From Calditrichota bacterium (lineage in GTDB: Bacteria; Calditrichota; Calditrichia; RBG-13-44-9): a DNA stretch of 45,988 nucleotides. Positions 8,574 through 45,988 of this stretch are shown here, in pieces. Made by a program: the position numbers and the translations under genes. The notes beneath the pieces are model-generated. The model worked only from the letters and a program-made list of their open reading frames with translations, made no database searches and was not told the origin of the DNA. The stretch's first letter is position 1. Each line of letters starts with the position of its first letter. The stretch is from assembly GCA_016934605.1 (NCBI GenBank), contig JAFGSO010000075.1, positions 1 through 45,988 on the forward strand, written 5' to 3'.

Positions 8574-8576
8574 AGA

Positions 8577-8604
8577 AGGATTCAGGAGTCAGGAATCAGG
8601 ATTC
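8577..8604. repeat. Heptanucleotide tandem tract AGGATTC AGGAGTC AGGAATC AGGATTC
   Basis: Four 7-bp units immediately after the GH38 stop codon. The tract contains TCAGGAGTCAGG (8582-8593), whose reverse complement recurs at 45851-45862. Confidence 0.9.
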
Positions 8605-8631
8605 CCGACTCCCTGTCAACCTCCGGTTGAC
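8585..8631 (+). terminator. Two consecutive stem-loops downstream of GH38 (possible terminator; no U-tract)
   Basis: The first is GGAGTC...GACTCC, with inner GGAATC/GATTCC pairing, at 8585-8612. The second is GTCAACC-tcc-GGTTGAC at 8615-8631. No T-run follows either one, so termination is uncertain. Confidence 0.3.
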
Positions 8632-8781
8632 CCGTCGGGACTCAACCTTCCATGGTTTCGTCAAGGCTCGGGGATTTTGTCCACTGATTACACGCCTGTC
8701 CGGTGGCAGAGGGGCTTGTCCGGCGTCCAGACTGGCTGTTATATTTGCTATAGACGGGTATCCTGCAGTTAGATTCCATCC

Positions 8782-8817
8782 AAAAAAAGATGCCACCGCT
8801 TCCATAACGATGGCATC
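8782..8817 (-). terminator. Rho-independent terminator of the giant T9SS-cargo gene
   Basis: The minus strand reads GATGCCA-(15-nt loop)-TGGCATC followed by TTTTTTT. It lies 32 nt downstream of the TAA stop at 8849-8851. Confidence 0.7.
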
Positions 8818-8848
8818 TTAGATCAATTCTCATACTAGAATGACAGGC

Positions 8849-26670: not shown

Positions 26671-26681
26671 GGAGGCACCTT

Positions 26682-26710
26682 TTAGTTAGTATAGTTAACT
26701 TAATAACTAA
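26682..26710. promoter_or_regulatory. Nested palindrome TTAGTTA-N15-TAACTAA enclosing AGTTAACT (candidate operator in the receptor-operon leader)
   Basis: The outer 7-bp arms are at 26682-26688 and 26704-26710, and the inner perfect palindrome AGTTAACT is at 26693-26700. It lies between the predicted -10 box and the GTG start. Confidence 0.35.
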
Positions 26711-26713
26711 CAA

Positions 26714-26742
26714 AGTTTATTGATTCACAAACAAAAAGTCAA
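26714..26742 (-). promoter_or_regulatory. Predicted sigma70-type promoter of the receptor/T9SS operon
   Basis: The minus strand reads TTGACT (26742-26737), a 17-nt spacer, then TAAACT (26719-26714). The -10 box lies about 45 nt upstream of the GTG start. This is a consensus match only, with no transcript data. Confidence 0.4.
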
Positions 26743-26984
26743 TAATAATTTTATTTTTATGAAGAAATTTTTTATCCCGGAGAACGATCCTCAATAATTC
26801 ACCTACTCCCTGATAACCGGGTACAAAATCAGCAGAATTTAGGGCTGAAAGCATAATTTATGCGAGACAACTTCACAGTGATCCGGTCACATCCCGTCCA
26901 TAGAATGCCTTATTTTATATATTCTCTTCATTTTTTTCTTAGAAGGGTGTCCTTCTCACTGTCCTCCGGGTGCTCAGCGGCACC

Positions 26985-27006
26985 TAAAAAAGCCACAGAT
27001 GGCTCA
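26985..27006 (-). terminator. Weak rho-independent terminator downstream of GHL10 paralogue 2
   Basis: The minus strand reads GAGCCA-tctg-TGGCTT followed by a T-run (TTTTTT). The stem is short (5-6 bp) and lies about 180 nt after the stop at 27182. Confidence 0.35.
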
Positions 27007-27181
27007 AAAGGCAGGGAGATCTAAACCATGGCATTGTCTAATGAAGGTAGAGTTTGTGAATTTACCGGGATAGGTCCAAAACAGACAAACCGATAAGGTA
27101 AATCGTTTCTAAGGTACTGAATTTCCCGGATTTGATTTTTTGTATTGTGTCAGCACCCATAATTGGGGAGGCTGGAATATG

Positions 27182-31873: not shown

Positions 31874-34033
31874 ATGAAGCGAAAAATTAAAATCGGTATT
31901 GATGTCGGCGGCACATTTACTCATGCGGTTGCGGTGGATATTGCAGATTATGAGATTGTGGGAAAGGAATGTGTTCCCACAACTCATACGGCCGAAGAAG
32001 GGGTAGCACGGGGAGTAGTCGATTCCCTCCAACTGCTGCTGAAAAATTCGCAAATAGATCCCTCTGAGATCATTCTGATTGCCCATTCGACCACTCAGGC
32101 AACCAATGCCCTGCTGGAGGGTGATGTGGCTCATGTAGGCATCATCGGCATGGGAAAAGGATTGCAGGGCAAAATTGCCCGCCGGGAGAGCAATCCGGGC
32201 AATATTGAACTTTCTCCGGGAAAATTTCTGAAAACCAGTCACCGGTTTCTGGACAGCAGTGAATCAATTTCTCGCGCTCAGGTAGAATCGGCAATCCGGG
32301 AAATGGCTGAAGAGGGAGCCACCGTGATTGTAGCTTCCGAAGCCTTTGGAGTAGATGATCCTGCCAACGAAGAAAAGGTGGTTCGAATAGCAGCTGATAT
32401 GAAATTTCTGACCACCACTGCCAGTCACATATCAAAGCTGTATGGATTGAGGGTTCGTACTCGCACCGCAGTGATCAATGCCAGCATGATGCCCCGTATG
32501 TTGGAGACCGCCAATATGACGGAGGAATCCGTACGTAAAAGCGGCATCGAGGCGCCTTTGATGATCATGCGCTCGGACGGTGGCATCATGGATATCAATG
32601 AAATGCGAAAACGGCCGATACTTACCATGTTGTCCGGTCCGGCTGCCGGAATTGCTGCCGCTCTGATGTATGCTAAAATCTCAGATGGTATTTTCCTGGA
32701 AGTGGGAGGAACTTCAACCGACATCTCCGTAATCAGAAATGGTAAACCTCAGGTGAAAAGCGCCCAGATAGGAGGTCACCGGCTCTATCTACGTACTCTG
32801 GATGTCCGTACAGTGGGTATCGCCGGTGGATCCATGCCCAGGATGAATGGAGATGAAATCGTCGATGTCGGACCACGGAGTGCTCATATTGCCAATCTGG
32901 GCTATATCAGTTTCAGCGGTGAGCAAGACTTTGATGATATGGAGCTGAAAACCATTCAACCGCTCCAGAACGACCCGGATGACTATCTGGCTGTCTGTCA
33001 CAAAGGAGATTCCACGCCCCGTTACACCATCACGCCGACGGGTGCGGCTAATTTTCTGGGATATGTAAAGGAAAAAGGACACGGACTGGCCAATATGACC
33101 GCCCTGAAGAATTTTTTCAGAATTCTATCGGTTAAATTGAATCAGACGGAAGAGGAAATCGCCCGGCGTATTCTGATAATCTCAGCCGAAAAAATTGAAC
33201 CGACTCTCAAACAATTGATCAGGGAATACAAACTCGATCCGGAACTGGTTCAACTGGTAGGAGGTGGCGGTGGAGCACCCGCACTAGTTCCCTTCACCGG
33301 TGAATACCTGGGTTTTAATTCCCGCATTGCTCAGAATGCGGAAGTTATTTCAGCCATCGGAGCAGCTCTTGGCATTATTCGCGATTCTGTGGAAAGAAGT
33401 ATCGTAAATCCCACTGATTCCGATCTTATTTCCATCCGGCAGGAAGCTATTGAGTCAGTACAAACCATGGGAGCAGTACCGGAAAGTATTGAAGTGAGTA
33501 TTGAGGTGGATACTCGTAACAAACGAGTGATAGCGGTGGCAACCGGTTCCAGCGAAATGCGTTCGAAAGAGCCAGGCATCAGGAAGCTATCTGAATCCGA
33601 AATCAGGGAAATTGCCGCTGCATCACTCAAAGTGGATCCAGATGCAGTTGAAATGAAGCAAAAGACTAGCTTCCTTTATGCGATCACCCTGTTGCAGACT
33701 GAAAAAAAGCTGTTCGGACTGATTCGTAATGAAATTCAGAAGGTGCGGGTGGTAGATCAGGAAGGAGTTATCCGGTTGCAGATCAACGACTGCGTGGTGA
33801 AGCAGGGAGAAGCCGGTACCGTAAAACAGACCATTACAGATGTTATAAATGAGCTGACAACCTACGGTGATGCCGGAGCGCTGGTTCCGGATATTTTTTT
33901 GCTGGTTTCCGCCAAAATTGTGGATATGAGCGGGCTGGTGCAGGAAAAGCAGATTGTGACCATGGCCGACATTGAGCTGAAAAAAGCTCCGCCATCTGAG
34001 CCGGTGATCCTGATCGGTGCCCAGAAAAAATAG
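31874..34033 (+). CDS. Hydantoinase/oxoprolinase family protein (HyuA-like, ASKHA fold)
   Basis: 719-aa ORF with [16 protein letters not shown] at the N-terminus, then [11 protein letters not shown] and [10 protein letters not shown] blocks typical of hydantoinase A. No HyuB partner is present in the window. Confidence 0.7.
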
Positions 34034-34066
34034 AAATATCGGCGGATAAAAAAAGAGGGTGTAGAA

Positions 34067-34304
34067 CATAGAGCTAAAAGAAAGAAAAAAGGATAAAGGA
34101 AAATGGATAATGGATAATGGGTAATGGGTAAAGACAAGAGATTCACGAATTTTCCTGAAGACCATTTTGTTGCGGGGAGAATGACATTCAGAATTTGCTG
34201 ATATCATTCTGGTCGTAAAATTTTTCTCGCATTAAAAATACCTATCTTCTAACTTTTAACCCTTTATCCTTTCGCCCTTATCCTTTTAGCCTCACATCTC
34301 TATG
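34067..34304. repeat. ~240-bp imperfect palindromic intergenic element built from heptamer tracts
   Basis: The arms are mirror-ordered. CATAGAG (34067) pairs with CTCTATG (34298). GCTAAAAG (34073) pairs with CTTTTAGC (34283). GGATAAAGG (34091) pairs with CCTTTATCC (34261). The left arm carries six 7-bp units (GGATAAA GGAAAAT GGATAAT GGATAAT GGGTAAT GGGTAAA) at 34091-34132. Confidence 0.8.
34141..34153 (+). promoter_or_regulatory. Motif ATTCACGAATTTT upstream of the HGSNAT-like operon
   Basis: This exact 13-mer recurs upstream of the symporter, in the same orientation relative to the gene (45896-45884 on the minus strand). Its core ATTC-N2-GAAT is an inverted repeat. Confidence 0.3.
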
Positions 34305-34355
34305 CTCTTTGCACCAACTTTCATCAAATCCGGAAACAAAAAAATTATTTGCTCC

Positions 34356-35789
34356 ATGAATAGATCTGATAATCAGTCACTCACAGCGCCGACCGCCCGA
34401 AGGGCCCTCAGTCTGGATGCCTTGCGAGGTTTTGCCATCCTGACCATGGTTCTTTCAGGCGTCATTCCCTATGGCATCCTGCCCTCCTGGATGTATCACG
34501 CTCAGCTTCCGCCCCCGGATCATCACTTCAATCCCGGTCTTCCGGGGCTTACCTGGGTAGATTTAGTTTTTCCGCTTTTTCTCTTTGCTCTGGGTGCTGC
34601 CATTCCTTTGGCTCTCTCCAGAAGACTCGAAAAAGGACAATCCTATCTGTCTATCCTGAAGTACATTCTGGAACGGGGATTTCTTCTGGGATTTTTTGCC
34701 ATTTTTCTTCGCCACGTCCGTCCGCATGTGCTGGATAATACACCCGAATCCGCAGACTGGCTCATTGCACTGGCAGGATTCATGATCATGTTTGCCATAT
34801 TTACCCGCCTGCCGCATTCCTGGAAAAACTGGATCCGCTGGACTGTGAAAGGCCTTGGCTGGAGTGGTGCCATCATACTGCTGGTAACTCTCACCTATCC
34901 TGATGGAACCGGTTTTTCCCTTTACAGAAGCGATATCATTATCATAGTACTGACCAATGTTGCCGTGTTTGGTTCACTGATCTGGTTGTTAACAAGTCAC
35001 AGCATCTTGCTTCGGATGGGGATCCTGGGAATTCTGCTGGGTTTTCGCCTGGCCAGTCAACATGCTGGCTGGGTGCAATCGGTATGGGAATTTTCACCGG
35101 TTCCCTGGATTTATAAACTGTATTATCTTCAATACCTGTTCATCGTATTGCCCGGTACTGTGGCGGGCGAATTCTTTTTGAAATGGATGCAGTCCAACCA
35201 TAAAAAAAACTCCAGCTGGTCACCTGGCCGCTTCTCGGCTCTGGCCGTCCTGACGCTTCTCTGCATTATCATGCTTCTCGTCCTATTACAGGCCAGACTA
35301 TCGTGGCAGACTGCGGTTTTGACTATAATTCTATGTGTGGTGATTCGCTGGCTGGTCAGAAATCCGGTCAATGAAATGGAACAATTATTGAAATCTCTCT
35401 CAGAATGGGGGATTTATTTTCTGATCGCGGGATTGATTTTTGAACCATATGAAGGAGGAATTAAAAAGGATAAATCCACAGTGAGCTACTACCTGGTGAC
35501 TACCGGCATGTCTTTCTTTCTGCTGACTTTTTTTTCGGTGATTCTCGATCACTTCTCAGGGAAAAAATATCTGAAATTGCTGATTGATAATGGTCAGAAT
35601 CCCATGATCGCCTATGTGGGAATCGCCAACTTTATCTGGCCGGTACTGGGCTTACTGTCCCTCGATTCCTTCATTCTGCAGATCACTCCCGGCCCTTGGC
35701 TGGGTTTTCTGCGCGGTGTTTTCTATACTTTGCTACTGGCATTTATGGTTAGCATCATTACCCGGAATAAAATATACTGGAAAACATGA
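34356..35789 (+). CDS. Heparan-alpha-glucosaminide N-acetyltransferase-like membrane protein (DUF1624/DUF5009 family)
   Basis: The ORF is open from 34302, but that ATG lies inside the palindromic repeat arm, so the ATG at 34356 (MNRSDNQ...) is preferred. It has the signature LSLDALRGFAILTMVLSG and is polytopic throughout. Its stop overlaps the next start (ATGA at 35786-35789). Confidence 0.6.
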   Translation: MNRSDNQSLTAPTARRALSLDALRGFAILTMVLSGVIPYGILPSWMYHAQLPPPDHHFNPGLPGLTWVDLVFPLFLFALGAAIPLALSRRLEKGQSYLSILKYILERGFLLGFFAIFLRHVRPHVLDNTPESADWLIALAGFMIMFAIFTRLPHSWKNWIRWTVKGLGWSGAIILLVTLTYPDGTGFSLYRSDIIIIVLTNVAVFGSLIWLLTSHSILLRMGILGILLGFRLASQHAGWVQSVWEFSPVPWIYKLYYLQYLFIVLPGTVAGEFFLKWMQSNHKKNSSWSPGRFSALAVLTLLCIIMLLVLLQARLSWQTAVLTIILCVVIRWLVRNPVNEMEQLLKSLSEWGIYFLIAGLIFEPYEGGIKKDKSTVSYYLVTTGMSFFLLTFFSVILDHFSGKKYLKLLIDNGQNPMIAYVGIANFIWPVLGLLSLDSFILQITPGPWLGFLRGVFYTLLLAFMVSIITRNKIYWKT

Positions 35790-37438
35790 AAAAACTAGCT
35801 CTTACACTTTTACTTTTTTCAATTCTACTACTACCAAATGCTCTCTATCAGCAACAATCCGCCGAACTTCGCGCGGTAAAACTGACCAATGTGGACAGTA
35901 ATGTGCTTTTTTCCGATGAGGCCATCGCACGGGCCATGGATTACCTGGCCTCTATCGGCATCAATACCGTGATTACTGTTGTCTGGAACGGGCATAAAGC
36001 GGATGGGGTCTATACCATTTACCCCAGCTCGCTTATGGACAGTATTTTCGGACAGGCTATGATTCCAACTTTTGACCAGAATCGCGATCCTCTGCAGCGG
36101 GTAACCATTGAAGCACACCGTAACGGCATAGAAGTGCTTCCCTGGTTTGAGATGGGGTTTTCTTCCTCCTATTCCCAGAACGGAGGACATATTATCAGCC
36201 GATTTCCGCACTGGGCATTGAAAAATAACGCCGGCAATCTGGTCGTTAAAAACGGATTCGACTGGATGTCCGGTATCAATCCCGAGGTACAGAACCTGAT
36301 AACATCGCTGGTATTGGAAATCGCTGATAATTATGACATTGACGGAATTGAGTTTTCCGACCGAATTCCCGCCATGCCGGTTCAGGGAGGTTACGACTCC
36401 GTTACCATTGCTGTTTATCGCAATGAACATAACGGTAGTTATCCCCCGCAGGATTCAACCGATGCTGCCTGGATGCGCTGGCGAGCGGATAAATTAAGCG
36501 AATATAACCGATCAGTAAGGGATTCTCTGAGAATGTGCTCACCTCACCTGCTTTTTTCATCAAGTCCCAGTGTTTATCCCTGGTCCTACGGTGAATATCT
36601 TCAGGATTCCAAAACCTGGGTTGACTCCGGCCTGGTGGACAATATTATTCCGCAGCTGTACAGGGACAATATTTCCGAATATATCAATGAGCTGAATAGA
36701 TCTCTCAGTTACGTACCGGCCGGTAAACGAGACATATTTTTTGCCGAAGTTCTAATGAACAAAGGAAGTTATACCATCAGTCCCCAGTTTCTGCTACAGA
36801 CCCTTGAAGCCAATCGTCAGCGGAATGTGATGGGTGAGGCTTTTTTCTTCTACGAAGGATTGCGCAGGAATAACAATCTTCTGGGAGATACTCTCAAGGC
36901 TACTTACTATTCACAGCCTGCACTCTTGCCACACCGGAACAGTCAGGTCTGGCGCCCCAGAGCGATTATCGTGAATGAAGATGAAGCCGGAGCTGAAATT
37001 ACCGGTAACTGGACTGTCTCCGGCATTAACGGATTCAAGCCCAATATCCTGCTAATACAGGATACAACCTATGCATCTGTTACTTATAATATGACAGTTC
37101 CGGCCAGCGGCTGGTATGATGTATTTCCTTATGTGGTGACCGGCCCGCTTACCACAAAACAGGCAAAATATACCATTTATTCTTCCCGGGATTCAACTTC
37201 TGTTCTGTATGATCAGACGGATTTCTATAAGCGGGGGTGGCAACCTCTGCAAACGGTTTATCTGGAGGCTGGTTTGCAGAAAATTGTAAAAATTGATAAC
37301 TCGGCAATTCTCCCCGGAGATATTCTCACCGCCGATGCGGCTATGATTATGATTAACCGTAAATTATCACCTGACGTTATTTTTACCTCAGTGAATATGC
37401 CGGAGGAAAGGAGAACACCTGTTACAGCGACTTTTTAA
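35786..37438 (+). CDS. GHL10-family putative glycosidase, paralogue 3, with accessory module; ends at an in-frame TAA just before its sorting domain
   Basis: 550-aa ORF with a signal peptide. Blocks are LRAVKLTNVDS, LPWFEMGF, DGIEFSDRIP, WRADKLSEY and PQLYR. The TAA at 37436-37438 is followed in the same frame by an intact sorting domain. Confidence 0.8.
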   Translation: MKKLALTLLLFSILLLPNALYQQQSAELRAVKLTNVDSNVLFSDEAIARAMDYLASIGINTVITVVWNGHKADGVYTIYPSSLMDSIFGQAMIPTFDQNRDPLQRVTIEAHRNGIEVLPWFEMGFSSSYSQNGGHIISRFPHWALKNNAGNLVVKNGFDWMSGINPEVQNLITSLVLEIADNYDIDGIEFSDRIPAMPVQGGYDSVTIAVYRNEHNGSYPPQDSTDAAWMRWRADKLSEYNRSVRDSLRMCSPHLLFSSSPSVYPWSYGEYLQDSKTWVDSGLVDNIIPQLYRDNISEYINELNRSLSYVPAGKRDIFFAEVLMNKGSYTISPQFLLQTLEANRQRNVMGEAFFFYEGLRRNNNLLGDTLKATYYSQPALLPHRNSQVWRPRAIIVNEDEAGAEITGNWTVSGINGFKPNILLIQDTTYASVTYNMTVPASGWYDVFPYVVTGPLTTKQAKYTIYSSRDSTSVLYDQTDFYKRGWQPLQTVYLEAGLQKIVKIDNSAILPGDILTADAAMIMINRKLSPDVIFTSVNMPEERRTPVTATF

Positions 37439-37705
37439 CTTTATCAGAACTACCCCAATCCGTTTAACTCTTCAACTACTATTACATTCGAAATTCGAAC
37501 AAGCGGATCAGTAAAATTGGAAATATTCGACATCATCGGCCGAAAAATCCGTACGCTGCCCGATGAATACAAGGCAGTTGGTGTTTACAAAATCGACTGG
37601 GCCGGTCTCAACGGATCGGGACAGCCTGCTGCATCCGGGGTATACATTTACCGAATGCAGGCAGAAAGGCTGATTCAGTCGAAGAAAATGCTGATGGTGA
37701 AATGA
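37439..37705 (+). pseudogene. Orphaned T9SS C-terminal sorting domain, in frame with the upstream GHL10 gene
   Basis: In the frame of 35786-37438 it reads [40 protein letters not shown]...GVYIYRMQAERLIQSKKMLMVK then TGA. There is no plausible independent start apart from a TTG at 37517. Confidence 0.8.
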
Positions 37706-37710
37706 ATGAA

Positions 37711-37773
37711 GGGATAAGGGATAAGGGATAAGGGTAAAGGAAAATGGATAAGGGTAAAGGAAAATGGATTCGG
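37711..37773 (+). repeat. Heptanucleotide tract (GGGATAA x3, GGGTAAA, GGAAAAT, GGATAAG ...), including a 20-bp internal duplication and a G-quadruplex-type motif
   Basis: Nine consecutive 7-bp units start 6 nt after the TGA at 37703-37705. GGG-ATAA-GGG-ATAA-GGG-ATAA-GGG lies at 37711-37734. GGGTAAAGGAAAATGGATAA (37732-37751) is repeated at 37752-37771 with two mismatches, both at its 3' end. Confidence 0.9.
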
Positions 37774-37813
37774 GAACCGGACGTTAGTTTACATTCGGCA
37801 AAAAAGAAAGAAA

Positions 37814-37862
37814 ATAAGATACAAGAAAACAAGAAAGTGATACAAAGTACAAAATACAAAAT
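37814..37862. repeat. A-rich heptanucleotide tract (ACAAGAA AACAAGA AAGTGAT ACAAAGT ACAAAAT ACAAAAT)
   Basis: 7-bp periodicity read directly. It shares GATACAAGAAA and AAGAAAGAAAA words with the 43.78-43.85 kb spacer. Confidence 0.7.
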
Positions 37863-37889
37863 ATTATGATATTCCGTCCACCTAAAATC

Positions 37890-37904
37890 TGTCCCGTAGG
37901 GACA
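37890..37904. terminator. Short bidirectional stem-loop between convergent GHL10 paralogue 3 and nanE
   Basis: TGTCCC-gta-GGGACA is flanked by T-rich sequence on both strands (ATTAATTTTA on plus, GATTTTAGG on minus). It lies 25 nt after the nanE stop. The stem is only 6 bp. Confidence 0.35.
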
Positions 37905-37928
37905 ATTAATTTTAGCCAGTGACATTTG

Positions 37929-38681
37929 TCACTTGAACCCTTGGAATCCTGAATCCCTTTTTCGCCAGGTAGCGAGGGCTTCAGTAAAACGTGCAGTAAT
38001 CAGGTGAGGACGGGTGATGGCACTGCCGACGACCACGGCAAAGGCACCACATCGAAATGCAGTGACAGCATCCTCCGGGGACCAGATACGTCCCTCGGCG
38101 ATAACCGGAAATTCGTTACCCAGCTCTCTCCTGAGCTCAGAAATCAGAGCGAAGTCGGGGACATAATTCGAAGCGGTATGTCGTGAGTATGAAGTATATC
38201 CGCTGAGCGTAGTACCTATCATATTAAAACCCATAGCTGCAGCCTGAACACCTTCTTCCAGCGTGGATACATCCGCCATCAGCAACAAAGCGGGATCATT
38301 CTTCAGTTCATGGACAATATCTTCCAGTTTTTCGGACAAAGGCCGGGGTCGTTGAGTTGCATCCAGTGCCAAAACTGGTACTCCCGTTCTTTTCACAGTG
38401 AGCGCCTCGGCAAGAGTGGGAGTGATTATGACTTCGGATGAGGCATATATTCTTTTATAAATCCCGATAACCGGTACCGGTACGGCATCCTGGACAGCCC
38501 TGATACTTTCAGGACCACTGGTTCTGATGGCTACAGCTCCTCCCTGGACTACTGCCCTGGCCATAGCGGCCAGTATATCAGGTTTTCCAAGAGGTTCGTT
38601 TTCCTCTGCCTGAACGGAGACGATTATTCCACCCTGCAGACGCTCAAGGATTTCTTTTTTACTCAGATCGCCGATTTTCAT
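37929..38681 (-). CDS. nanE: N-acetylmannosamine-6-phosphate 2-epimerase
   Basis: 250-aa ORF with blocks matching NanE throughout: GGIIVSVQA, AAMARAVVQGGAVAIR, PVIGIYKR, DATQRPRP, IGTTLSGYT, VIAEGR, VGSAITRP. Confidence 0.85.
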   Translation of the reverse strand: MKIGDLSKKEILERLQGGIIVSVQAEENEPLGKPDILAAMARAVVQGGAVAIRTSGPESIRAVQDAVPVPVIGIYKRIYASSEVIITPTLAEALTVKRTGVPVLALDATQRPRPLSEKLEDIVHELKNDPALLLMADVSTLEEGVQAAAMGFNMIGTTLSGYTSYSRHTASNYVPDFALISELRRELGNEFPVIAEGRIWSPEDAVTAFRCGAFAVVVGSAITRPHLITARFTEALATWRKRDSGFQGFK

Positions 38682-38699
38682 ACCAATACTGGTTTTTTC

Positions 38700-41114
38700 C
38701 TACCCTAATATAACTTTGATGATAACTATTTCTTTCCCCTTAATTATCTTCTGAATGAGCGGATTTTCCGGATCGATGACGTTTCCGGAAATTTCCTTTC
38801 CTTCTATCTCCAGTTTCCGGATACCACGATTTACTCCCGATGGATTTTCCACATTTATCTGATAGTATCTTCCCCTGAATTTTCTCCTGATCCGAAAGTT
38901 TTTCCAATCGTGGGGAATGCAGGGATCAATTATCAGTCCTTTATATTCCGGCCTTACGCCCAGAATGTAGTCAATCCCATCACGCAGCATCCAGGTGGAA
39001 GAACCCGTAAGCCAGGAGTGGCTTGCCTGGCCGAAGGTTGGATGATCAGGACTGGTCACATACTCCGCGTAAACATAGGGTTCCACCTTATAACGGTCTA
39101 TATCGACCACCGGATTCATGGGGAAAGCCTTCCTGTAAATCTCAAAGGCACGGTCTCCTCTTCCCAGCAGGCATTCAGCCAGAACAGCCCAGCTGACTGT
39201 ATGATTGAAAATTGCTCCGTTCTCCTTCTTACCCGCCACGCAACGGGTAGCCAGACCAATGTTGGGATCGATACGGGTGTAGGGCGGATGCAGAATTTTG
39301 GGTCCTTTTGGAGTTTCCAGATATTTTTTTACTGCGTCCATACACTGAAATGCACGAGACTTATTCGCCACACCGCTTATCACTGCCCAGGTCTGCGTAT
39401 TCAAAAATATTTTCCCCTGTTCATTTTTCCGGGAACCAATGATATCACCCCGGTCATTAGTGCCGCGAATATACCATTCACCATCCCAGCACAGCTCATT
39501 GATAGCAAATTTAACCGTTTCATAGGCTCGTTGGTACCGTTTCCTGCCGGATTCATCACCGATAAAATTGCAGAGACCGATAGTTTCCTTCAGAATGAAA
39601 GCCAGAAACATAGACACCCAGATACTCTCTCCCCGTCCCTCCCGGCCAAGGTAATCCAGAGTGTCGTTCCAGTCACCCGGACCGAATTTAGCCAGCTTTC
39701 GATCTGTGAGATTATTCAGCGTATAATCGATGGCACGGTAGATATGCTCAAGAACCGTACCATTTCCTTCATCATAATAGGTAACCGTATGTTCAAGAAT
39801 TGCTCTTTCACCGGTTTCTTTTAAATAACTAATTACAGCTAAAGGTAGCCACAATGGGGTATCCGAATGACCGGTTTTTTCACCGCCGCCGGTCAGGGGA
39901 TAGTAGAGGTGAAATGTACTTCCATCTCTAAACTGGTATTTGCACATTTCCAGAATACGGTTTCTGGCCCAATCGGGACGGGGAATAACAGGCCCCAGCA
40001 GATCCTGGCAGGAATCCCGGTATCCCCGGCCGAAAAGCAGACCGCCATGATAATAGGAGGCGTCCCGCGAAAAACGGAAGGTCACTGATGTCTGATACTG
40101 ATTCCACACATTCAGCATGATATTCATATCAGGATCCGGTGTTTCTATATTTACAGCCGAAAGATAATCTTTCCACTCTTCTTTCAGCTGTCGCAATTCC
40201 ATTTCCACATTATTCTGTTGACGGTATTTTTCTGCCAATTTTATGGACGTTTTCAGATAGTCTTCAATCGGGACAACTCCCAGAAATACGCTAAACTCTT
40301 TTTCTTCGCCCGGTTCCAGAGTCACTTCCACCTGCAGTGCGCCCGCAGCATCACCGGCGGCGATCTCCAAATTCCGGCATCGACCTTCCTCAACCGCCAG
40401 TGGATTCGCTTCCGAACGCCATCGTCCAATAAACAGATCCTTACTTCCATCCCAGCCTTTAACAGGTAGTGAAGAACCGAAAAACACATATTTATCCCAG
40501 GATTCATTGGCCTGTTTCACGGTTGCGGTGTTGAATTTTACCCAGTAACGTTTCGTGGCAAAAAGGAGATGGGCATCCGGATGAAAATAGACCTGATTGA
40601 AATGCTGGTCGTTGGGCTGGTTGATCAAATCCACCAGCGCATGCCCCAGGCACAGTTCTACATATGCGAAGATATCCATCCATCGTTTTTCATTCCCTTC
40701 ATTTTTAAGTCTAATTTTCCAGACCTCCAGATCGTCAGAGGGGACAAAATAGGTAATTCCAGCGGAAATATTTTTATAACGGGATGAAATGCGGGTATAA
40801 TACAGACCATGACAGCATTGGTAATTTTCCAGTGGTGTTTCAGTAGGCTGCCAGGTTGGTGACCAGTATTCTCCGTTTTTCTGATCCCGCAGATAGAGAT
40901 AACGTCCCGGCCGGTCCCACGGCAGTGAATTATAACGCCAGCGGGTAATCCGGCTGTCCCTGGGGCTCATATAAAAACTGTATCCTCCACCGGTATGGCT
41001 TATCAGTCCGCTGTATCTTCCATTAGAGATATAATTCACCCAGGGTGCCGGGGTGTCCGGTCTGGTGATGATAAATTCCGTTCCGTCTTCACAGAAGGTC
41101 CCATATTTCTGCAC
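38700..41114 (-). CDS. GH94 disaccharide phosphorylase (cellobiose/N,N'-diacetylchitobiose phosphorylase family)
   Basis: 804-aa ORF with a GTG start after GGAAAGGAAAAGG. The N-terminus reads GTEFIITRPDTPAPWVNY...GGGYSF, and the catalytic-region block is GRGYRDSCQDLLG. Length is typical of the family. Substrate cannot be decided from sequence. Confidence 0.8.
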   Translation of the reverse strand: MQKYGTFCEDGTEFIITRPDTPAPWVNYISNGRYSGLISHTGGGYSFYMSPRDSRITRWRYNSLPWDRPGRYLYLRDQKNGEYWSPTWQPTETPLENYQCCHGLYYTRISSRYKNISAGITYFVPSDDLEVWKIRLKNEGNEKRWMDIFAYVELCLGHALVDLINQPNDQHFNQVYFHPDAHLLFATKRYWVKFNTATVKQANESWDKYVFFGSSLPVKGWDGSKDLFIGRWRSEANPLAVEEGRCRNLEIAAGDAAGALQVEVTLEPGEEKEFSVFLGVVPIEDYLKTSIKLAEKYRQQNNVEMELRQLKEEWKDYLSAVNIETPDPDMNIMLNVWNQYQTSVTFRFSRDASYYHGGLLFGRGYRDSCQDLLGPVIPRPDWARNRILEMCKYQFRDGSTFHLYYPLTGGGEKTGHSDTPLWLPLAVISYLKETGERAILEHTVTYYDEGNGTVLEHIYRAIDYTLNNLTDRKLAKFGPGDWNDTLDYLGREGRGESIWVSMFLAFILKETIGLCNFIGDESGRKRYQRAYETVKFAINELCWDGEWYIRGTNDRGDIIGSRKNEQGKIFLNTQTWAVISGVANKSRAFQCMDAVKKYLETPKGPKILHPPYTRIDPNIGLATRCVAGKKENGAIFNHTVSWAVLAECLLGRGDRAFEIYRKAFPMNPVVDIDRYKVEPYVYAEYVTSPDHPTFGQASHSWLTGSSTWMLRDGIDYILGVRPEYKGLIIDPCIPHDWKNFRIRRKFRGRYYQINVENPSGVNRGIRKLEIEGKEISGNVIDPENPLIQKIIKGKEIVIIKVILG

Positions 41115-41140
41115 GTGTCCTTTTCCTTTCCGTCTTGATT

Positions 41141-42547
41141 CTATTTCTTTCCTGTCATCAATTTCAAACCGGAGTGAAGTATTTTTTTCACCAGATTCCT
41201 GTCGGGAGCAGCTACGTAAATTCGTACCAGCGGTTCAGTTTGAGAAACCCTTATCAACATCCAGGTATTTTCTCCAAAATAGAGCTTCAGGCCGTCAATT
41301 AAATTAACCTTCGATACAGTTACACCGGCTATCTGATCCGGTGGATTTTTGCGAAGTTGCTGCAATCTGCGATGCAAATCTTCGATATCGTGATACCGAT
41401 CGATTCGTTCATAACTGAAAGGTCCATATTTTTCTCGGAGGTGTGCCACCAATTCACGAATATCGGTCTGTTGTTCTCCAAGGAGCTCCAGCAGCAGAAG
41501 AACGGATAATATTCCATCTCGTTCAGGGAGGTGACCTTTATATCCGAATCCACCGCTTTCCTCCCCACCTATCAGTACATCATCGCCGATCATTCTTTCG
41601 GTAACATTTTTAAAGCCAACCGGTACTTCCAACACTTCACATTTCAATTCCCGCGCAAGCATATCCACTGTTGTTGCCAGGGAAGTTGTCCGGACTACTT
41701 TTCCACTCAATTTTTTAGATTTTATCAGATGTTCCAGAAATAACGGCATCACATCATGAAGTTCAACGAATTCACCGCTGCCATCCACCGCCCCGAACCG
41801 GTCTGCATCACCGTCCAGGGCCAGTCCCAGAGACGCTTTTTTATTACGCACGGTCCTGGAAAGTACTTCCAGATTCTTCGGAATGGGCTCCGGTAGACGG
41901 TTTCCAAAGTATGGATCAGGATATGAAAAAATGCTCTCGAAATGCAATCCGGATGTCTGTAGTAATTTATCTATGAAACCACACCCGGCACCAGCCATGG
42001 GATCGACAATCAAGCCTTCCCTGAATTCCGCAAGAGATTCAAATTTTATAAACTTTTCTATCTGTTGCTGATATTCCGGGAAAAAATCGATGTGTTGTAT
42101 GTTGCGTTGAATCAGTTCAGGATGGGAAGCAGATTTATGGAATCCAAGCAATGATTCAATCTGAGAGGTTACATCGTTCATAACAGGACCACCATAGGGT
42201 CCTTTAAATTTAATACCGTTGTAAAAATAAGGATTATGACTTGCCGTTACCATAATTCCAGCTGATAATCCATAGTTTTTTACGGCAAAGGAAAGCACCG
42301 GAGTTGGTGTATAATTAGCAGAAAGAAGAACCGGAATATCATTACTGGCAACCACTTCGGCAAAGTGACGGGCAAAAGTGGAAGACAGAAAACGGGTATC
42401 GTAAGATACCGCAATGCCGGCAGATGTCTGATTTTTTGCGATTAAATATTCACTGACAGCCTGGGCAATCTGGCGGACATTGTCGAATGTAAACTGGTCT
42501 GCTAAAATGGCCCGCCAGCCATCCGTACCGAATCGAATCTCTTCCAT
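41141..42547 (-). CDS. Alpha-D-phosphohexomutase (phosphoglucomutase/phosphomannomutase family)
   Basis: 468-aa ORF. The active-site loop is VTASHNPYFYNGIKF, the metal loop ALDGDADRFGAVD and the sugar loop GGEESGGFGY. Confidence 0.85.
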   Translation of the reverse strand: MEEIRFGTDGWRAILADQFTFDNVRQIAQAVSEYLIAKNQTSAGIAVSYDTRFLSSTFARHFAEVVASNDIPVLLSANYTPTPVLSFAVKNYGLSAGIMVTASHNPYFYNGIKFKGPYGGPVMNDVTSQIESLLGFHKSASHPELIQRNIQHIDFFPEYQQQIEKFIKFESLAEFREGLIVDPMAGAGCGFIDKLLQTSGLHFESIFSYPDPYFGNRLPEPIPKNLEVLSRTVRNKKASLGLALDGDADRFGAVDGSGEFVELHDVMPLFLEHLIKSKKLSGKVVRTTSLATTVDMLARELKCEVLEVPVGFKNVTERMIGDDVLIGGEESGGFGYKGHLPERDGILSVLLLLELLGEQQTDIRELVAHLREKYGPFSYERIDRYHDIEDLHRRLQQLRKNPPDQIAGVTVSKVNLIDGLKLYFGENTWMLIRVSQTEPLVRIYVAAPDRNLVKKILHSGLKLMTGKK

Positions 42548-42678
42548 CTGTTATACCGAAACTGAAGACGAATTTCATTAATATGACCAATTTTAAATTT
42601 ATAAAAGCTGAGAGTCTTTTCATAGAACAAAAAAATTAGATAGTTAAGTAGCCTTACTAATGGGGGAAGAGGAATAGA

Positions 42679-42737
42679 GGTATGAAGGTATAGGGTATAC
42701 GGTATAGGGTATAGGGTATAGGGTATAAGGTATAGGG
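42679..42737. repeat. Heptanucleotide tract RGGTATA x8-9
   Basis: GGTATGA AGGTATA GGGTATA CGGTATA GGGTATA GGGTATA GGGTATA AGGTATA read directly. It lies 130-190 nt upstream (gene sense) of the phosphohexomutase start. Confidence 0.95.
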
Positions 42738-42857
42738 AAAAATGAAAGAGTGCATAAATAAAAAATGCGGAAGTCATCATATGTCAGATATCAATCATTA
42801 GAGTTCTCTGAAGACTGCTTTCTGATCGGCTGCATTCTATTAACTGCATTTCAGTCT

Positions 42858-43682
42858 TTATTTTTTGATCTTGTTCTGTCTTCGAGAATCGCAGGCGGAG
42901 CACTGATTTTTCGGACAGAGCAGTTCAAGCGGTCTTGAACGGAAAAAAGAAAGGCCGTGTTCCAGCAACAAACCAACATGAATAAAATACCCGAAGAGGC
43001 TATGGTAACGGAAAGGATGTATAATTTTCCGATTCAGCAAATAGTTTTCAAAATTCACAAAAGACTTGCTGCAACCGGGTACTTCATGGAGCTCCTGTTC
43101 ACCTTTGATGGAAACACCGGCCGGACGAATGCCCAGGTAAGCCCATGGAAAGGTATCGTGCCAGGGAACTGGGGCCATTGTTTCCAGATAATGACAGAAT
43201 GAAAGCGAAAGGAAATCCGTACCGAGCATCAAAATGAAAGCATCCTGCTGACGGCTCAGCCATTCCAGAACGCTTCCCTCTCCCAGCGGACTCTCAGGAG
43301 CATTATCTGGCTGTATTTCTCCTGACGCACGTCCCCACAGCGCAAACGAATGAGTGGCTGAGGCAGTCCGAATCACCTCCGGCATTTTTCTGAAAACCTC
43401 CGACACGGCGCCTACTTTACTCGGCGTTTCATCCGGATTATATATTTTTGATGGTTCATTGACCTTTGCGAAACAATAAGAAAATGTTGCCAGAATCACC
43501 GATCCTTCTGGCGTAATAATGTCCTGGATTATTCTGAGGAAATCCTCTATATTCAGTCCTGGAAATTCCCTCCGGATTTTTCTGTAAGCAGCATGAATCA
43601 TCACATGTTGATTTTGCTTCAGTCCAATATCTCGGAGAAATTTTTCCATCTCTGAAAATGTCATATTTTTTTTAGTTTTCAT
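42858..43682 (-). CDS. AAC(3)-family N-acetyltransferase-like protein
   Basis: 274-aa ORF. The layout resembles aminoglycoside 3-N-acetyltransferases (PF02522): LRDIGLKQNQHVMIHAAY, PEGSVILATFSY, GAVSEVFRKMPEVIRTASATHSFALWG. The substrate is unknown. Confidence 0.5.
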   Translation of the reverse strand: MKTKKNMTFSEMEKFLRDIGLKQNQHVMIHAAYRKIRREFPGLNIEDFLRIIQDIITPEGSVILATFSYCFAKVNEPSKIYNPDETPSKVGAVSEVFRKMPEVIRTASATHSFALWGRASGEIQPDNAPESPLGEGSVLEWLSRQQDAFILMLGTDFLSLSFCHYLETMAPVPWHDTFPWAYLGIRPAGVSIKGEQELHEVPGCSKSFVNFENYLLNRKIIHPFRYHSLFGYFIHVGLLLEHGLSFFRSRPLELLCPKNQCSACDSRRQNKIKK

Positions 43683-43702
43683 AAATCAATATCTGAAAAT
43701 TT

Positions 43703-43744
43703 AAAGCATAGAGCACAGAGCATAGAGCACAGAGCATAGAGAAA
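43703..43744. repeat. Heptanucleotide tract AGAGCAY x6
   Basis: AAAGCAT AGAGCAC AGAGCAT AGAGCAC AGAGCAT AGAGAAA read directly. AGAGCATAGAGA (43731-43742) recurs inverted at 34297-34308. Confidence 0.95.
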
Positions 43745-43810
43745 AAGACAGTAGCCAGAAGCCAGCCGGCAATTCAAGAAAGAAAACAAGATACAAATCT
43801 GACCGAAGGA

Positions 43811-43845
43811 CAGGATACAAGAAACAAGATACAAGATACAAGACA
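43811..43845. repeat. Heptanucleotide tract CAAGAYA x5
   Basis: CAGGATA CAAGAAA CAAGATA CAAGATA CAAGACA read directly. Confidence 0.9.
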
Positions 43846-43937
43846 TAGAAAGCAGCCCCGAAGCCAGAAAAATAAATTCCAAATCCTAAGCACTAAATTC
43901 CAATGAAATCTTAAATCACAAATGACAAATTTAAAAA

Positions 43938-43975
43938 CCAGTATCCAGTATCCAGCATCCCCTTAATCCTTCATC
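43938..43975. repeat. CCAGYAT x3 tract followed by the left copy of a 15-bp inverted repeat (CCTTAATCCTTCATC)
   Basis: CCAGTAT CCAGTAT CCAGCAT lies at 43938-43958. The segment 43961-43975 is the exact reverse complement of 45818-45832. Confidence 0.9.
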
Positions 43976-43976
43976 T

Positions 43977-44828
43977 TTAATCCTGTATTTCCACTTCATC
44001 CGAAAGATGTCGAAACCACAGGAAATAGAGACCTGTCGAGAGAAGAATCAATAAACCCAGCAGGGAAAAAAATACCTGCCAGTTCTTAAAAAGCACGACC
44101 ATCACCGTCAGAAACAGGGTCATCTGCCAGGGCACAGCCAGAAATGTCGCCCAGATATCACGCCGGTTTTCTTTCTTAATATTTCCTTTCGATGAAGAGG
44201 ACAAGGTTTTTCGTACCGGTCTCCAGAAACCAAACGGCCGGGTAGTCGTATAGAATTTTCGAAGAATAGTAAAATCCGGGGGTTGGGAGAAAATAGTTCC
44301 AAGCAGTGTCGCCGCAAGAGAGAGACTGCTCACCAGGAGAAAAGCCAGGTATTCAGCAAGTCCGGGCAGAAATATCCTTTGAACAATAGCACTGATCATT
44401 CCAACTGCAATACCGGCTGCAAAACCATATCCATTCATTCGCCACCAGTACCAGCGTAACAGCTGGGGAATCAGCATACCGGCACCAATACTCATGGTTA
44501 GCCAGCCCCATATCTCGTTAATACTCTGGATATTTAAGGTGAGCAGGAGACCGATGACCACGATTATCAGAGAAGACCAGCGGCTATGTCGCATTAATTG
44601 TCTGTCCGAAGCATCAGAATTGATAAATCCCTGATAAATATCTTTTACCCAGTAGGAAGCTCCGGCATTTACCAGTGAATCGAAGGTGGACATTCCAGCC
44701 GCCATCAAACCGGCAACCAGAAGTCCTTTAAGTCCGATGGGAAGAAGCTGATTAATGACTACAGGCAGAACTCTTTCAGGATCCCGCAGAATTTCCGGAT
44801 TGGTTTGTCCAAAAACGATTCCCATCAC
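43977..44828 (-). pseudogene. Sodium:solute symporter (SSS family), C-terminal part, downstream of an in-frame TGA
   Basis: 283-aa ORF in the same frame as 44874-45794. Reading through the TGA (44874-44876) gives a continuous ...ETGLLSLF*TFLLSFRWPFIASIAVMGIVFG... and a ~604-aa polytopic protein. Confidence 0.7.
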
Positions 44829-44873
44829 GGCAATGGAAGCAATAAACGGCCAGCGGAAAGAAAGCAGAAAAGT

Positions 44874-45794
44874 TCAAAACAGGGAGAGCAGACCGGTTTC
44901 ACGATCACTACGGGAAGCAAAAAAGCGTTGAATCATATATCCGCTCGTACCCGAGCTTCCTTCAATAATAGTCTTGATCATGAAAAAAATGACAGCAATG
45001 CCAAACATATTGTAGATAGAATAAACCGAGTTTTCCGGAAAACCCAGTTTCCAGACCGGTATAATTCCGGTCCACTGCTCCCGGGTGGTTTCAATGAGAG
45101 TATACCCACCGTCCTTCAGCGGTATGGACAGATGGAAAACTTCCGGTAGATCGAATCGTGCAAAACTGATAATACAGGTAATCACGATGGCCAGAAAGAT
45201 TAGTCCACCCTGGAAAAAATCAGTCCATACAACGCCATACAGTCCGCTGGTAATTGTATAAATAGTCGCCAGCACAATCATGAGGCTGGCAGCCCAGAAT
45301 TCTGGAGACAGACCCAAATAGTATTTGAATTGAAGAAATTCTCCAATAAATTTTCCTGCGCCGACAGAAAAATAGGTAATGATCCAGATGGTACTGATCA
45401 GGATCGCCAGAGCCGCAAAAAGCCTGGCCAACTTCCCATCCCGACCTTTTCCGAAGCGGAATTCCATCCATTCCGCCATGGTCATTACGCTGGCACGACG
45501 ATTCCATTTTCCCATAAAAATCATGAGAAATGCCATGATAAGTACCAAACCGCCGCGGATTTCGATGAAAAATCCCATCGTTCCGAAAGCATAAATCAGT
45601 GCGGTATTGATCATGGTCCCGCTGATATCCAGATTGGAGGACATTCCGGAAGCACCCAATACCCACCAGGGAAGCTGCCGGTCTCCCAGGAAATAGGAAT
45701 CGATTCCTGCCGATGCTTTCTTCCTGAAATAAATTCCAACACCCACCATGGCTGAGAGATAGAAAAATACAATGATATAATCCGGAAGTGACAT
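44874..45794 (-). pseudogene. Sodium:solute symporter (SSS family), N-terminal part, ending at an in-frame TGA
   Basis: 306-aa ORF. The N-terminus is typical of SSS carriers: DYIIVFFYLSAMVGVGIYFRKKASAGIDSYFLGDRQLPWWVLGASGMSS. Confidence 0.75.
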
Positions 45795-45816
45795 ACGGGC
45801 TCGGTATTATTGATTA

Positions 45817-45871
45817 GGATGAAGGATTAAGGAAGACTCGCTTCCTGAAGCCTGACTCCTGATTCCTCTCC
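45817..45871. repeat. Heptanucleotide tracts GGATGAA GGATTAA GGAAGAC and CCTGAAG CCTGACT CCTGATT CCTCTCC in the symporter upstream region
   Basis: Read directly. It contains the right copy of the 15-bp inverted repeat (45818-45832) and the complement of the 8582-8593 12-mer (45851-45862). Confidence 0.9.
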
Positions 45872-45883
45872 TATTTAGTTGGT

Positions 45884-45896
45884 AAAATTCGTGAAT
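45884..45896 (-). promoter_or_regulatory. Motif ATTCACGAATTTT upstream of the symporter gene
   Basis: The minus strand reads ATTCACGAATTTT, 90-102 nt upstream of the ATG at 45794. It is identical to 34141-34153. Confidence 0.3.
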
Positions 45897-45988
45897 AAAA
45901 AAGAGCCACCGAGGAGACTCGAATCACGCCGAAAGGCGGATCCGCTTATCAGCGGACTCCTGACATTCAGTTTACTTTTCATTAATCA

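Follow-up and report, generated by a model that had tools for sequence, protein, structure and literature searches.

Heptanucleotide Tandem Repeats in the Intergenic Spacers of a Glycan-Utilisation Cluster of a Calditrichota Bacterium

Gene Content and Period-7 Arrays of the Contig

The stretch of DNA analysed here, in the following called the window, is an entire contig of 45,988 bp (JAFGSO010000075.1) from a metagenome-assembled genome (MAG) of a Calditrichota bacterium (GCA_016934605.1), and it is the one contig of this genome that was included. Its intergenic spacers carry a set of tandem repeats with a unit of seven nucleotides (heptamers). The surrounding genes form a glycan-utilisation cluster with a TonB-dependent receptor and several proteins with type IX secretion (T9SS) tails, the enzymes GH38, GH94, and GHL10, NanE, a phosphoglucomutase, and an AAC(3)-like acetyltransferase, as well as a ROK regulator and a sodium:solute symporter identified via Pfam. 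The window proteins carry the NCBI label Calditrichaeota/Calditrichota (RQW07268-88), and the nearest homologues of the GHL10 glycoside-hydrolase-like protein belong to candidate division KSB1/Zhuqueibacterota (59-64% identity). Thus, the host had rightly been placed in the Fibrobacterota-Chlorobiota-Bacteroidota (FCB) group in an earlier note on this DNA, which had been made from the letters alone.

Genes were defined as long open reading frames (ORFs) with Pfam support, which left 2,850 non-coding bases, corresponding to 6.2% of the window. Using Tandem Repeats Finder (TRF) with a threshold of period 7 and at least three copies, we detected 10 arrays of 3.3-9 copies (Table 1), all 10 of which were located in this small non-coding fraction (binomial p about 1e-12). 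A register map added those at 43745-43766, 43906-43930, 45816-45836, and 45844-45867, leading to a total of about 14 arrays, which are spread over six spacers and consist of 3-9 units with 68-93% matches. Scanning for tracts at different lags resulted in seven tracts at lag 7 and in none at lags 4-6 or 8-12. Lag statistics for all spacers with a length of 100 bp or more (2.5 kb in total), compared with 300 dinucleotide-preserving shuffles, revealed 878 matches at lag 7 versus 666+/-21 in the shuffles (z=10.0), followed by signals at lag 14 (z=10.2) and lag 21 (z=5.8), with z<4 at every other lag. No lag-7 signal was present in the coding DNA of the window or in the spacers after masking of the arrays (1.8 kb, z=0.1). 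Since no residual period-7 signal was left outside the arrays, it was ruled out that whole spacers represent decayed heptamer arrays.

Altogether, the period-7 tracts proposed in the earlier note proved to be real, with a TRF array at every site named there. Their period turned out to be less strict than had been claimed, as TRF reported indels of 4-9% for the two longest arrays, and the stretch 37730-37769 is built from a 20-bp higher-order unit (7+7+6); the longest perfect run comprised 3.9 copies. It had also been claimed that no tract lies in a confident coding sequence, which held for the 10 TRF arrays by our gene definition and for the coding DNA in general, apart from the fact that the array at 43961-43984, which reads GGATTAAAGATGAAGGATTAAGGGGATGCTGGATACTGG on the sense strand of the symporter gene, runs into the stop and the final codons of this gene.

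Unit Families and Modules Shared between Spacers

At least eight distinct unit sequences occur inside 12 kb, so that it is the period that is conserved and not a sequence, and the 7-nt period is the only property common to all tracts. When read on the purine-rich strand, most units differ from one another by single steps around a GG(A/G)T(A/T) core, namely GGATAAT, GGGTAAT, GGGATAA, GGATGAA, GGATTAA, GGATTCA, GGAATCA, GGAGTCA, GGATACT, GGAATTT, GGGTATA, and AAGATAC; the units AGAGCAY and AAATCAC fall outside this main series.

All exact common words listed in the earlier note were recovered in place, and sharing between spacers exceeded the shuffle expectation. Thus, a word of at least 12 bases was common to five spacer pairs compared with 0.6 expected (maximum of three in 500 shuffles), and a 15-mer was common to two spacer pairs compared with 0.01 expected. 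The arrays also have non-periodic sequence in common, located at their heads. The heptamer ATGAAGG was found at the heads at 37706, 42682, and 45819 and, inverted, at 43968; of the 17 copies of this word in the window, five fall into the 6% of non-coding DNA, and four of these five are at array heads. The word AATAG(G)AGA stands in front of the AGGANTC arrays, namely at 8569 and, in inverted form, at 45876, and a 34-nt alignment of the array region at 8576 with the reverse complement of 45840-45880 includes this head; likewise, 45844-45871 is homologous to the reverse complement of 8576-8605. A third head, CGGCAA-N3-AAGAAAGAAAAYAAGATACAA, stands before the CAAGATA-type arrays at 37796 and 43766, with 37800-37866 being collinear with 43766-43848.

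Further modules recur across spacers. The 22-mer AAGGRTAAAGGAAAATGGATAA is common to the array at 34078-34135 and to 37730-37751, and the 15-mer GATGAAGGATTAAGG of 45816-45836 recurs inverted at 43961. The order of AGAGCAY, AAGAAAGAAAA, and RAGATA arrays is identical at 34063-34135 and 43701-43848, and the AGAGCAY unit is also present 1.7 times at each outer end of the imperfect palindrome at 34057-34315, the arms of which align as GGTG..AGARCATAGAG..GCTAAAAG..AAAGGATAAAGG. Based on these common non-periodic heads and modules, the spacers contain copies of common modules that have expanded differently at each place. Overall, TRF, lag statistics, and common words agree with the earlier proposal of a related heptanucleotide family confined to intergenic DNA and resembling the short tandemly repeated repetitive (STRR) sequences.

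In four spacers, facing arrays make up imperfect palindromes, the 5' arm being rich in purines and the 3' arm in pyrimidines (8576-8612; 34078-34135/34257-34291; 43701-43848/43874-43984; 45816-45836/45844-45871), and the two longest arrays, 37706-37773 and 42684-42739, stand single. For the palindrome at 34057-34315, the extent of the spacer depends on the start of the DUF5009 gene, which is probably 34356 and not the ATG at 34302 inside TCTCTATGCTCT; a gene call on the second-assembly contig L054 starts at 34356, whereby the TCTCTATGCTCT word would be non-coding and the spacer 322 bp long.

In addition to the arrays, the terminator-like hairpins at 8783-8818 and 45897-45922 have the word AAAAAAGA(T)GCCACCG in common, and the 13-mer ATTCACGAATTTT was found at 34141 and, inverted, at 45884. 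Words common to such distant hairpins and spacers indicate that non-periodic spacer sequence is also repeated in part.

Table 1. Heptamer arrays and associated elements in the window, with the extent of the corresponding TRF arrays
Position	Strand	Feature	TRF array	Basis and placement
8576..8612	+	(AGGAWTC/AGGAGTC)x4, then short complementary arm TTCCCGACTCC	8577-8604	TRF, register map, centroid hairpin; begins 3 nt past the GH38 stop
34057..34315	+	Imperfect palindrome of about 260 bp		Occupies most of the hydantoinase/DUF5009 spacer 34034-34355
34078..34135	+	Purine arm AAGAAAG/AAAAAAG, then (GGATAAN/GGGTAAN)x6	34081-34131	TRF, register map
34257..34291	+	Pyrimidine arm (CCTTTAT/CCCTTAT)x5, complement type	34261-34286	TRF; fold partner of 34078-34135
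37706..37773	+	Head ATGAAGG, (GGGATAA)x3, then 20-bp unit x2	37709-37769	TRF, register map; 1 nt past the stop of an ORF with T9SS tail
37800..37866	+	AAAAAAGAAAGAAAATAAGATACAAGAAAACAAG, then (RTACAAA)x3	37840-37863	TRF, register map
42684..42739	+	Head ATGAAGG, then (TATAGGG/TATACGG)x8; longest array, no inverted partner	42674-42737	TRF, register map
43701..43745	+	(AGAGCAY)x6, perfect at period 14	43705-43741	TRF, register map; 19 nt ahead of the start codon of AAC(3), a minus-strand gene
43776..43848	+	AAGAAAGAAAACAAGATACAA module, then (CAAGATA)x5	43810-43843	TRF, register map
43874..43930	+	Weak arrays AAATTCC/AAATCCT and AAATCAC/AAATGAC		Register map, sequence
43933..43984	+	(CCAGTAT)x3.3, then (CCTTAAT/CCTTCAT)x3.4	43938-43960, 43961-43984	TRF, register map
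45816..45836	+	(AGGATKA)x3, head ATGAAGG		Register map; 22 nt ahead of the start codon of the symporter gene
45844..45871	+	(CCTGANT)x3.5, pyrimidine arm opposite 45816-45836 across AGGAAG/CTTCCT hairpin centre		Register map, alignment

Comparison with Relatives and a Second Assembly

Syntenic relatives covering about 50 kb (L048, L055/L056 with 64-69% amino-acid identity, L057 with 71%, and L058) revealed no period-7 array of at least three copies. The spacer at 8574-8848 has a length of 275 bp in the window, while its counterpart in L048 measures 84 bp and consists of a bidirectional terminator hairpin only. Likewise, the hydantoinase and DUF5009 genes are separated by the 322-bp spacer 34034-34355 in the window, but in L055 they share 4 bp, and in L057 the gap between them measures 34 bp. 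Given the lack of arrays in these relatives, the arrays are recent additions in this lineage. The element words were not found in about 700 kb of other fetched loci. Scans of genome and metagenome contigs with the phosphoglucomutase protein revealed only relatives of at most 43% identity plus two short partial matches, with no orthologous spacers and no species-level relative in these collections; loci obtained in this way were used as controls only.

As a second assembly, we used contigs (L001, L047, L054, and L089) that Logan had assembled independently from run SRR13394437, which may share the source sample of the MAG. They were 100% identical to the window over 34078-34291 (including both arrays), 42684-42739 (L001), 43701-43984 (L089), and 45816-45871. 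Within the spacer 37706-37928, contigs of this assembly stop inside arrays, namely at 37740 and 37840. These ends were considered as possible branch points caused by differing copy numbers; their positions do not fit simple one-unit variants, and no conclusion was drawn from them.

Folding, Quadruplex Motifs, and Signal Searches

Folding of 34060-34301 as RNA led to pairing of the two arrays with -59.3 kcal/mol compared with -47.5+/-4.5 kcal/mol in shuffles (z=-2.6), and 8560-8850, a stretch that includes ordinary terminators, reached z=-2.9. The folds of 37695-37930, 42548-42857, 43683-43990, and 45795-45925 were no better than those of shuffles. Thus, structured untranslated regions (UTRs), one of the roles suggested in the earlier note, find moderate support in two spacers, while a general reading of this kind was rejected, as four of the six spacers fold no better than shuffles.

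The sole canonical G3N1-7 quadruplex motif of the window is (GGGATAA)3GGG at 37711-37734. Allowing loops of up to 12 nt, three motifs were found, two of which are arrays, the additional array motif being 42693-42723 with one loop of 11 nt; the remaining arrays lack four G3 tracts with short loops. Judged from these motifs, quadruplex formation is plausible at these two arrays only.

Searches for known signals gave no explanation for the arrays. Rfam resulted in no match at gathering thresholds in the whole window and in no relevant match at E<=1 in 33900-38000 or 42500-45988, and no tRNA was found in the window. The Bacteroidetes-type promoter TTTG-N17-23-TANNTTTG had zero matches, and TANNTTTG alone was not enriched. 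A pattern scan for sigma-70 promoters and terminators revealed nothing specific to arrays except the terminator-like hairpins at 37889-37905 and 43754-43770. Since these two hairpins sit beyond arrays that come after stop codons, those arrays are probably transcribed as 3' UTR.

Control Loci and Viral Contigs

A control set of 543 kb from other phyla (loci L002-L046) was searched for periods 4-12. Among arrays of three or more copies, period 7 was the most common with 18 arrays, compared with 10 for period 6 and at most five for each other period, which agrees with the survey by Mrazek (PMC4679880). The density of period-7 arrays was 21.7 per 100 kb in the window, a value that refers to one contig, versus 3.3 in the controls, a 6-7-fold difference. 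Clean inverted heptamer pairs around a short core adjoin a phosphoglucomutase gene in the unrelated metagenomic contigs L038, L037, and L012, e.g., (GTTGCCG)9/(AACCGGC)9 in L038 and (GAGTGAT)4/(CTCATCA)4 in L037.

An exact-word scan of IMG/VR with AGGAWTCAGGAGTCAGG revealed 23 stretches, mostly with a G+C content of 57-67%, several of which were saturated with inverted pairs. Contig L077, harbouring capsid, connector, and tail genes, contains 22 arrays in 14.7 kb, typically in the arrangement [stop]-(AGGAGTC)n-loop-(GACTCCT)m-[start]; its host could not be identified by capsid or tape-measure similarity. The AGGANTC unit family of the phage-like contigs is that of 8576-8605 and 45844-45871 in the window. 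As a side observation, phage-like IMG/VR contigs with 57-67% G+C (L077:1-14682, L085:1-9510, L060, L066, L068, L080, L084, and L088) carry arrays in nearly every gap between structural genes, mostly as (AGGAGTC/AGGAATC)n-loop-(CCTGACT)m starting right past stop codons. Our literature searches revealed no description of such heptamer-rich phage contigs.

Neighbouring Genes and Other Repeats

Two genes adjoining heptamer arrays contain internal stop codons. In the GHL10/Golvesin_C gene (35786-37705, plus strand), an in-frame TAA is located at 37436-37438, and the frame runs on into a type IX sorting domain at 37442-37702. This TAA aligns with a glutamate of the 630-aa orthologue in L055, corresponding to a GAA-to-TAA change, and was also found in L054; the gene may represent either a pseudogene or a truncated, non-secreted form. 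The symporter gene (43977-45794, minus strand) has an in-frame TGA at 44874-44876, with one SSF/TIGR00813 domain spanning the stop, and the same stop is present in L089.

Within the C-terminal part of the GH38 ORF, 4.9 copies of the 15-bp tandem unit GAAGAAGTGACTCTG at 8412-8484 encode EEVTL repeats; contig L047 ends inside this repeat at 8441. The spacer between the TonB-dependent receptor gene and a GHL10 gene (26671-27181, 511 bp) contained no heptamer arrays and no Rfam match, and its counterpart in L055 has 122 bp.

Relation to Known Repeat Systems

The STRR1-3 sequences, reportedly described by Mazel et al. in 1990, are said to occur in heterocystous cyanobacteria with the units CCCCAGT, TTGGTCA, and CAACAGT and about 100 copies per genome. 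Like the arrays of the window, they are dispersed, non-coding tandem heptanucleotides with several unit families per genome. Their host, however, is a heterocystous cyanobacterium, which the window host is not, and no two-unit occurrence of these units was found in the window in any rotation or on either strand.

The bacterial interspersed mosaic elements (BIMEs) and repetitive extragenic palindromic (REP) sequences of enterobacteria and the pneumococcal BOX elements consist of short modules in varying order and orientation, including palindromes at gene 3' ends and within operons, and BOX has an internal module of variable copy number. The window shares with BIME and BOX the modular spacer elements in varying order and orientation and the imperfect palindromes, but it differs by 7-nt arrays instead of 35-60-nt units, by the missing REP consensus, and by the lack of a nearby transposase gene, including one for a REP-associated tyrosine transposase (RAYT). 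With a 7-nt unit and no Y1-transposase domain among the window proteins, the arrays do not belong to REP/BIME. Of the features of miniature inverted-repeat transposable elements (MITEs), inverted arms are present at 34057-34315, with only partial modules recurring within the contig. Heptanucleotide repeats are also carried by the hmw promoters of Haemophilus influenzae.

According to the survey by Mrazek, Guo, and Shah in 2007, as summarised in two later papers, heptanucleotides are the most abundant class of long simple sequence repeats (LSSRs) in most prokaryotic genomes (PMC4679880, PMC4692102), and repeats with a unit that is not a multiple of three avoid coding DNA (PMC4679880). A preference of slippage tied to the polymerase footprint was proposed there (PMC4679880). 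Regarding what these summaries convey, the window resembles the LSSRs in that heptamers dominate, are mostly non-coding, and occur in free-living bacteria, with a slippage preference proposed over a physiological role; the survey differs in predating any Calditrichota or KSB1 genome. The arrays have tandem units of 5-11 bp beyond chance length, and their units, not being a multiple of three, are kept non-coding, which places them in the class LSSR5-11.

MacGregor 2015 described direct repeats of TAACTGA and other heptamers in five Bacteroidetes as well as in Beggiatoaceae and cyanobacteria, where sets of 2-43 heptamers lie between genes, frequently at a distance of a few nucleotides from a start codon (PMC4679880). 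The FCB-group hosts included Flexibacter litoralis, Gramella forsetii, Aequorivita sublithincola, and Paludibacter, and close relatives of TAACTGA-type hosts had shorter, repeat-free spacers (PMC4679880). Therefore, the view of the earlier note that such repeats had not been described in FCB-group bacteria was wrong. The window agrees with these repeats in the intergenic location near start codons, in FCB hosts, and in relatives with shorter repeat-free spacers. In contrast, the TAACTGA unit is absent from the window, and while one unit dominates a Beggiatoaceae genome, many coexist in the window. The protein CspB binds heptamer repeats with one protein per unit, as cited by the same paper (PMC4679880).

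Similar units make up the repeats reported by Rehm et al. 2015, GGGAATC in Xanthomonas and GGGGAYT in Nostoc PCC 7120, which are intergenic and next to ORFs (PMC4692102); AGGAATC and GGGATAA of the window differ from them by 1-2 bases. Downstream of ORFs, their G-rich strand coincides with the coding strand, and upstream with the non-coding one; there are inverted pairs among them, arrays of four units are favoured, and sister species differ in repeat length and sequence (PMC4692102). They are transcribed, and no function was found (PMC4692102). The window displays the same 7-nt unit, intergenic bias, placement at ORF ends, inverted pairs, a run with four G-tracts, and turnover between species, and with respect to the orientation of the G-strand, nine arrays fit, three are ambiguous, and none is clearly opposed. 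It differs in belonging to another phylum, in shorter (3-9 units) and more degenerate arrays, in many units with GG only or no G-run, and in several unrelated units per spacer.

Origin and Possible Roles of the Arrays

The explanation we favour, though we regard it as evenly balanced between right and wrong, is that the arrays are slippage-born heptanucleotide simple sequence repeats carried in short, modular, partly palindromic intergenic elements of this lineage. The arrays would arise and change their length by slipped-strand mispairing in steps of 7 nt, about the stretch of DNA held by the replicative polymerase according to an idea mentioned in PMC4679880, and they would be retained outside ORFs only, given that an indel of 7 nt puts a gene out of frame. 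Modules may be copied between nearby spacers or palindrome arms by template switching or gene conversion, after which copies would diverge and be locally homogenised. Transcribed as 3' UTR, intercistronic, or 5' leader sequence, the arrays would make spacers longer, break the coupling of genes that once overlapped, and contribute a moderate hairpin (34057-34315) or a tract rich in G (37711-37734, 42693-42723); any regulatory effect is taken to be incidental and not the reason for the arrays. The orientation rule, inverted pairs, intergenic bias, and turnover between species match the heptamers of Xanthomonas and Nostoc, and no Rfam family, tRNA, or promoter-type motif accounts for the arrays.

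Several points weigh against this explanation. It is based on a single 46-kb contig of the source genome, and no variation in unit number was seen in the second assembly, which spans 10 of the 12 main arrays. Phage contigs with the same AGGANTC units carry as many as 22 arrays in 14.7 kb, which is hard to square with useless DNA in a size-limited genome. The conserved GGAT/GGA core and the ATGAAGG head could be a binding site instead of a sign of common descent. Finally, the purine arm comes first in all four pairs of the window, in three of four control pairs, and in 29 of 30 viral pairs, i.e., in about 36 of 38 pairs overall (L058-L088, L011, L012, L037, L038, and the window), although the viral pairs were selected by one word and are not an independent sample. 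Purely neutral evolution would not be expected to yield such a polarity, which is suggestive of selection or of a specific origin, one idea being a derivation from the A-tract/stem and stem/T-tract of bidirectional terminators. As a palindrome with the purine arm first reads alike on both strands, this polarity is independent of gene orientation and would by itself yield the orientation rule published for Xanthomonas and Nostoc.

Alternatively, the arrays may be functional cis-elements on the transcript or DNA that set mRNA stability, termination, or translational coupling in the glycan-utilisation locus, which we consider a serious but rather doubtful explanation. They could act as multivalent platforms for a protein that binds single strands over about 7 nt and recognises the GGA/GGAT core (of the cold-shock-domain, S1, or CsrA type), as G-quadruplexes, or as intercistronic hairpins. 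Such a role would fit the position of arrays close to ORF ends (1-3 nt past the stop in three cases and 19-22 nt ahead of the start in two), the conserved core and ATGAAGG head, and the near-universal palindrome polarity. The array that makes up the sole canonical quadruplex motif in 46 kb has exactly four G-tracts, the number favoured in Xanthomonas, the spacer 34034-34355 folds with z=-2.6, and the dense arrays between phage structural genes and the binding of CspB to each heptamer unit, as cited in PMC4679880, point in the same direction. However, the AGAGCAY, CAAGATA, and AAATCAC families lack GGA or G-runs, arrays are missing from the orthologous spacers of relatives having the same genes, and four other spacers, including the two with the longest, unpaired arrays, fold like shuffles; moreover, the arrays are degenerate, and the study on Xanthomonas and Nostoc found no regulatory role (PMC4692102). 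In a bolder version, to which we give little credence, the arrays would be the visible part of an undescribed class of intergenic elements, that is, palindromes with heptamer-array arms and a fixed purine-then-pyrimidine polarity, common to distant phyla and to phages, in which they would occupy nearly all gaps among structural genes, copied between spacers, and acting as intercistronic RNA hairpins or protein-binding platforms for mRNA fate. In this case, the elements of the window would be a decaying set, still recognisable by the heads ATGAAGG, AATAGRAGA, and CGGCAA-N3-AAGAAAGAAAA.

Non-autonomous mobile or mosaic elements (MITE-, BIME-, or BOX-like), whose heptamer-array arms were later varied by slippage and whose common words would be copies of one family, also seem unlikely. 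The 260-bp palindrome at 34057-34315 is inserted between genes that directly adjoin each other in relatives, and non-periodic heads and collinear modules recur, in both orientations, in spacers separated by 3.6 to 37 kb. Moreover, the symporter gene is bordered by perfect inverted repeats of 15 bp, and the element words are missing from about 700 kb of other loci. Yet no target-site duplication was found by eye, either around 34057-34315 or at the borders of the spacer 34034-34355, the contig has no two full-length copies but only modules of 15-35 nt in varying order and orientation, Pfam revealed no transposase or RAYT gene in the window, and the two longest arrays are single and without flanking inverted repeats. 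We regard it as very improbable that the arrays are contingency loci, in which a change in unit number would switch neighbouring genes via promoter spacing or leader structure as for hmw of Haemophilus influenzae. With regard to placement, (AGAGCAY)x6 lies at roughly -19 to -64 of the AAC(3) start, between a terminator-like hairpin and the gene, so that any promoter there must overlap the array, and contigs of the second assembly end inside two arrays (37740 and 37840). Every array covered by the second assembly was identical in length and sequence, though, the longest perfect run of 3.9 units is well under known phase-variable tracts, and half of the arrays are 3' of genes, the flanking genes being metabolic and not of the surface-variation type. 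The constant unit number in the second assembly and the short perfect runs likewise give no support to slipped-strand control of promoter spacing, one of the roles suggested in the earlier note. That the pattern is due to chance or to assembly can practically be dismissed: the window does stem from a short-read metagenome bin, in which repeats are error-prone, but z=10 versus shuffles and the base-for-base reproduction of the arrays in the Logan assembly of SRR13394437 effectively refute an artefact.

Significance of the Heptamer Arrays

By their sequence features, the repeats of the window are a further example of a repeat class known in many bacteria. Heptamers are the commonest long simple repeat of prokaryotes. 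This contig extends heptamer repeats to a Calditrichota/KSB1-like lineage and offers a clean before/after case, as the same genes in relatives overlap or have short, array-free spacers. It also provides two handles on the reason for the period of 7 and on any role of the arrays, the near-universal purine-first polarity and the common non-periodic heads, the latter arguing for copying between spacers. The window itself is not exceptional, and its weight would rise if the observations on polarity and common modules prove general.

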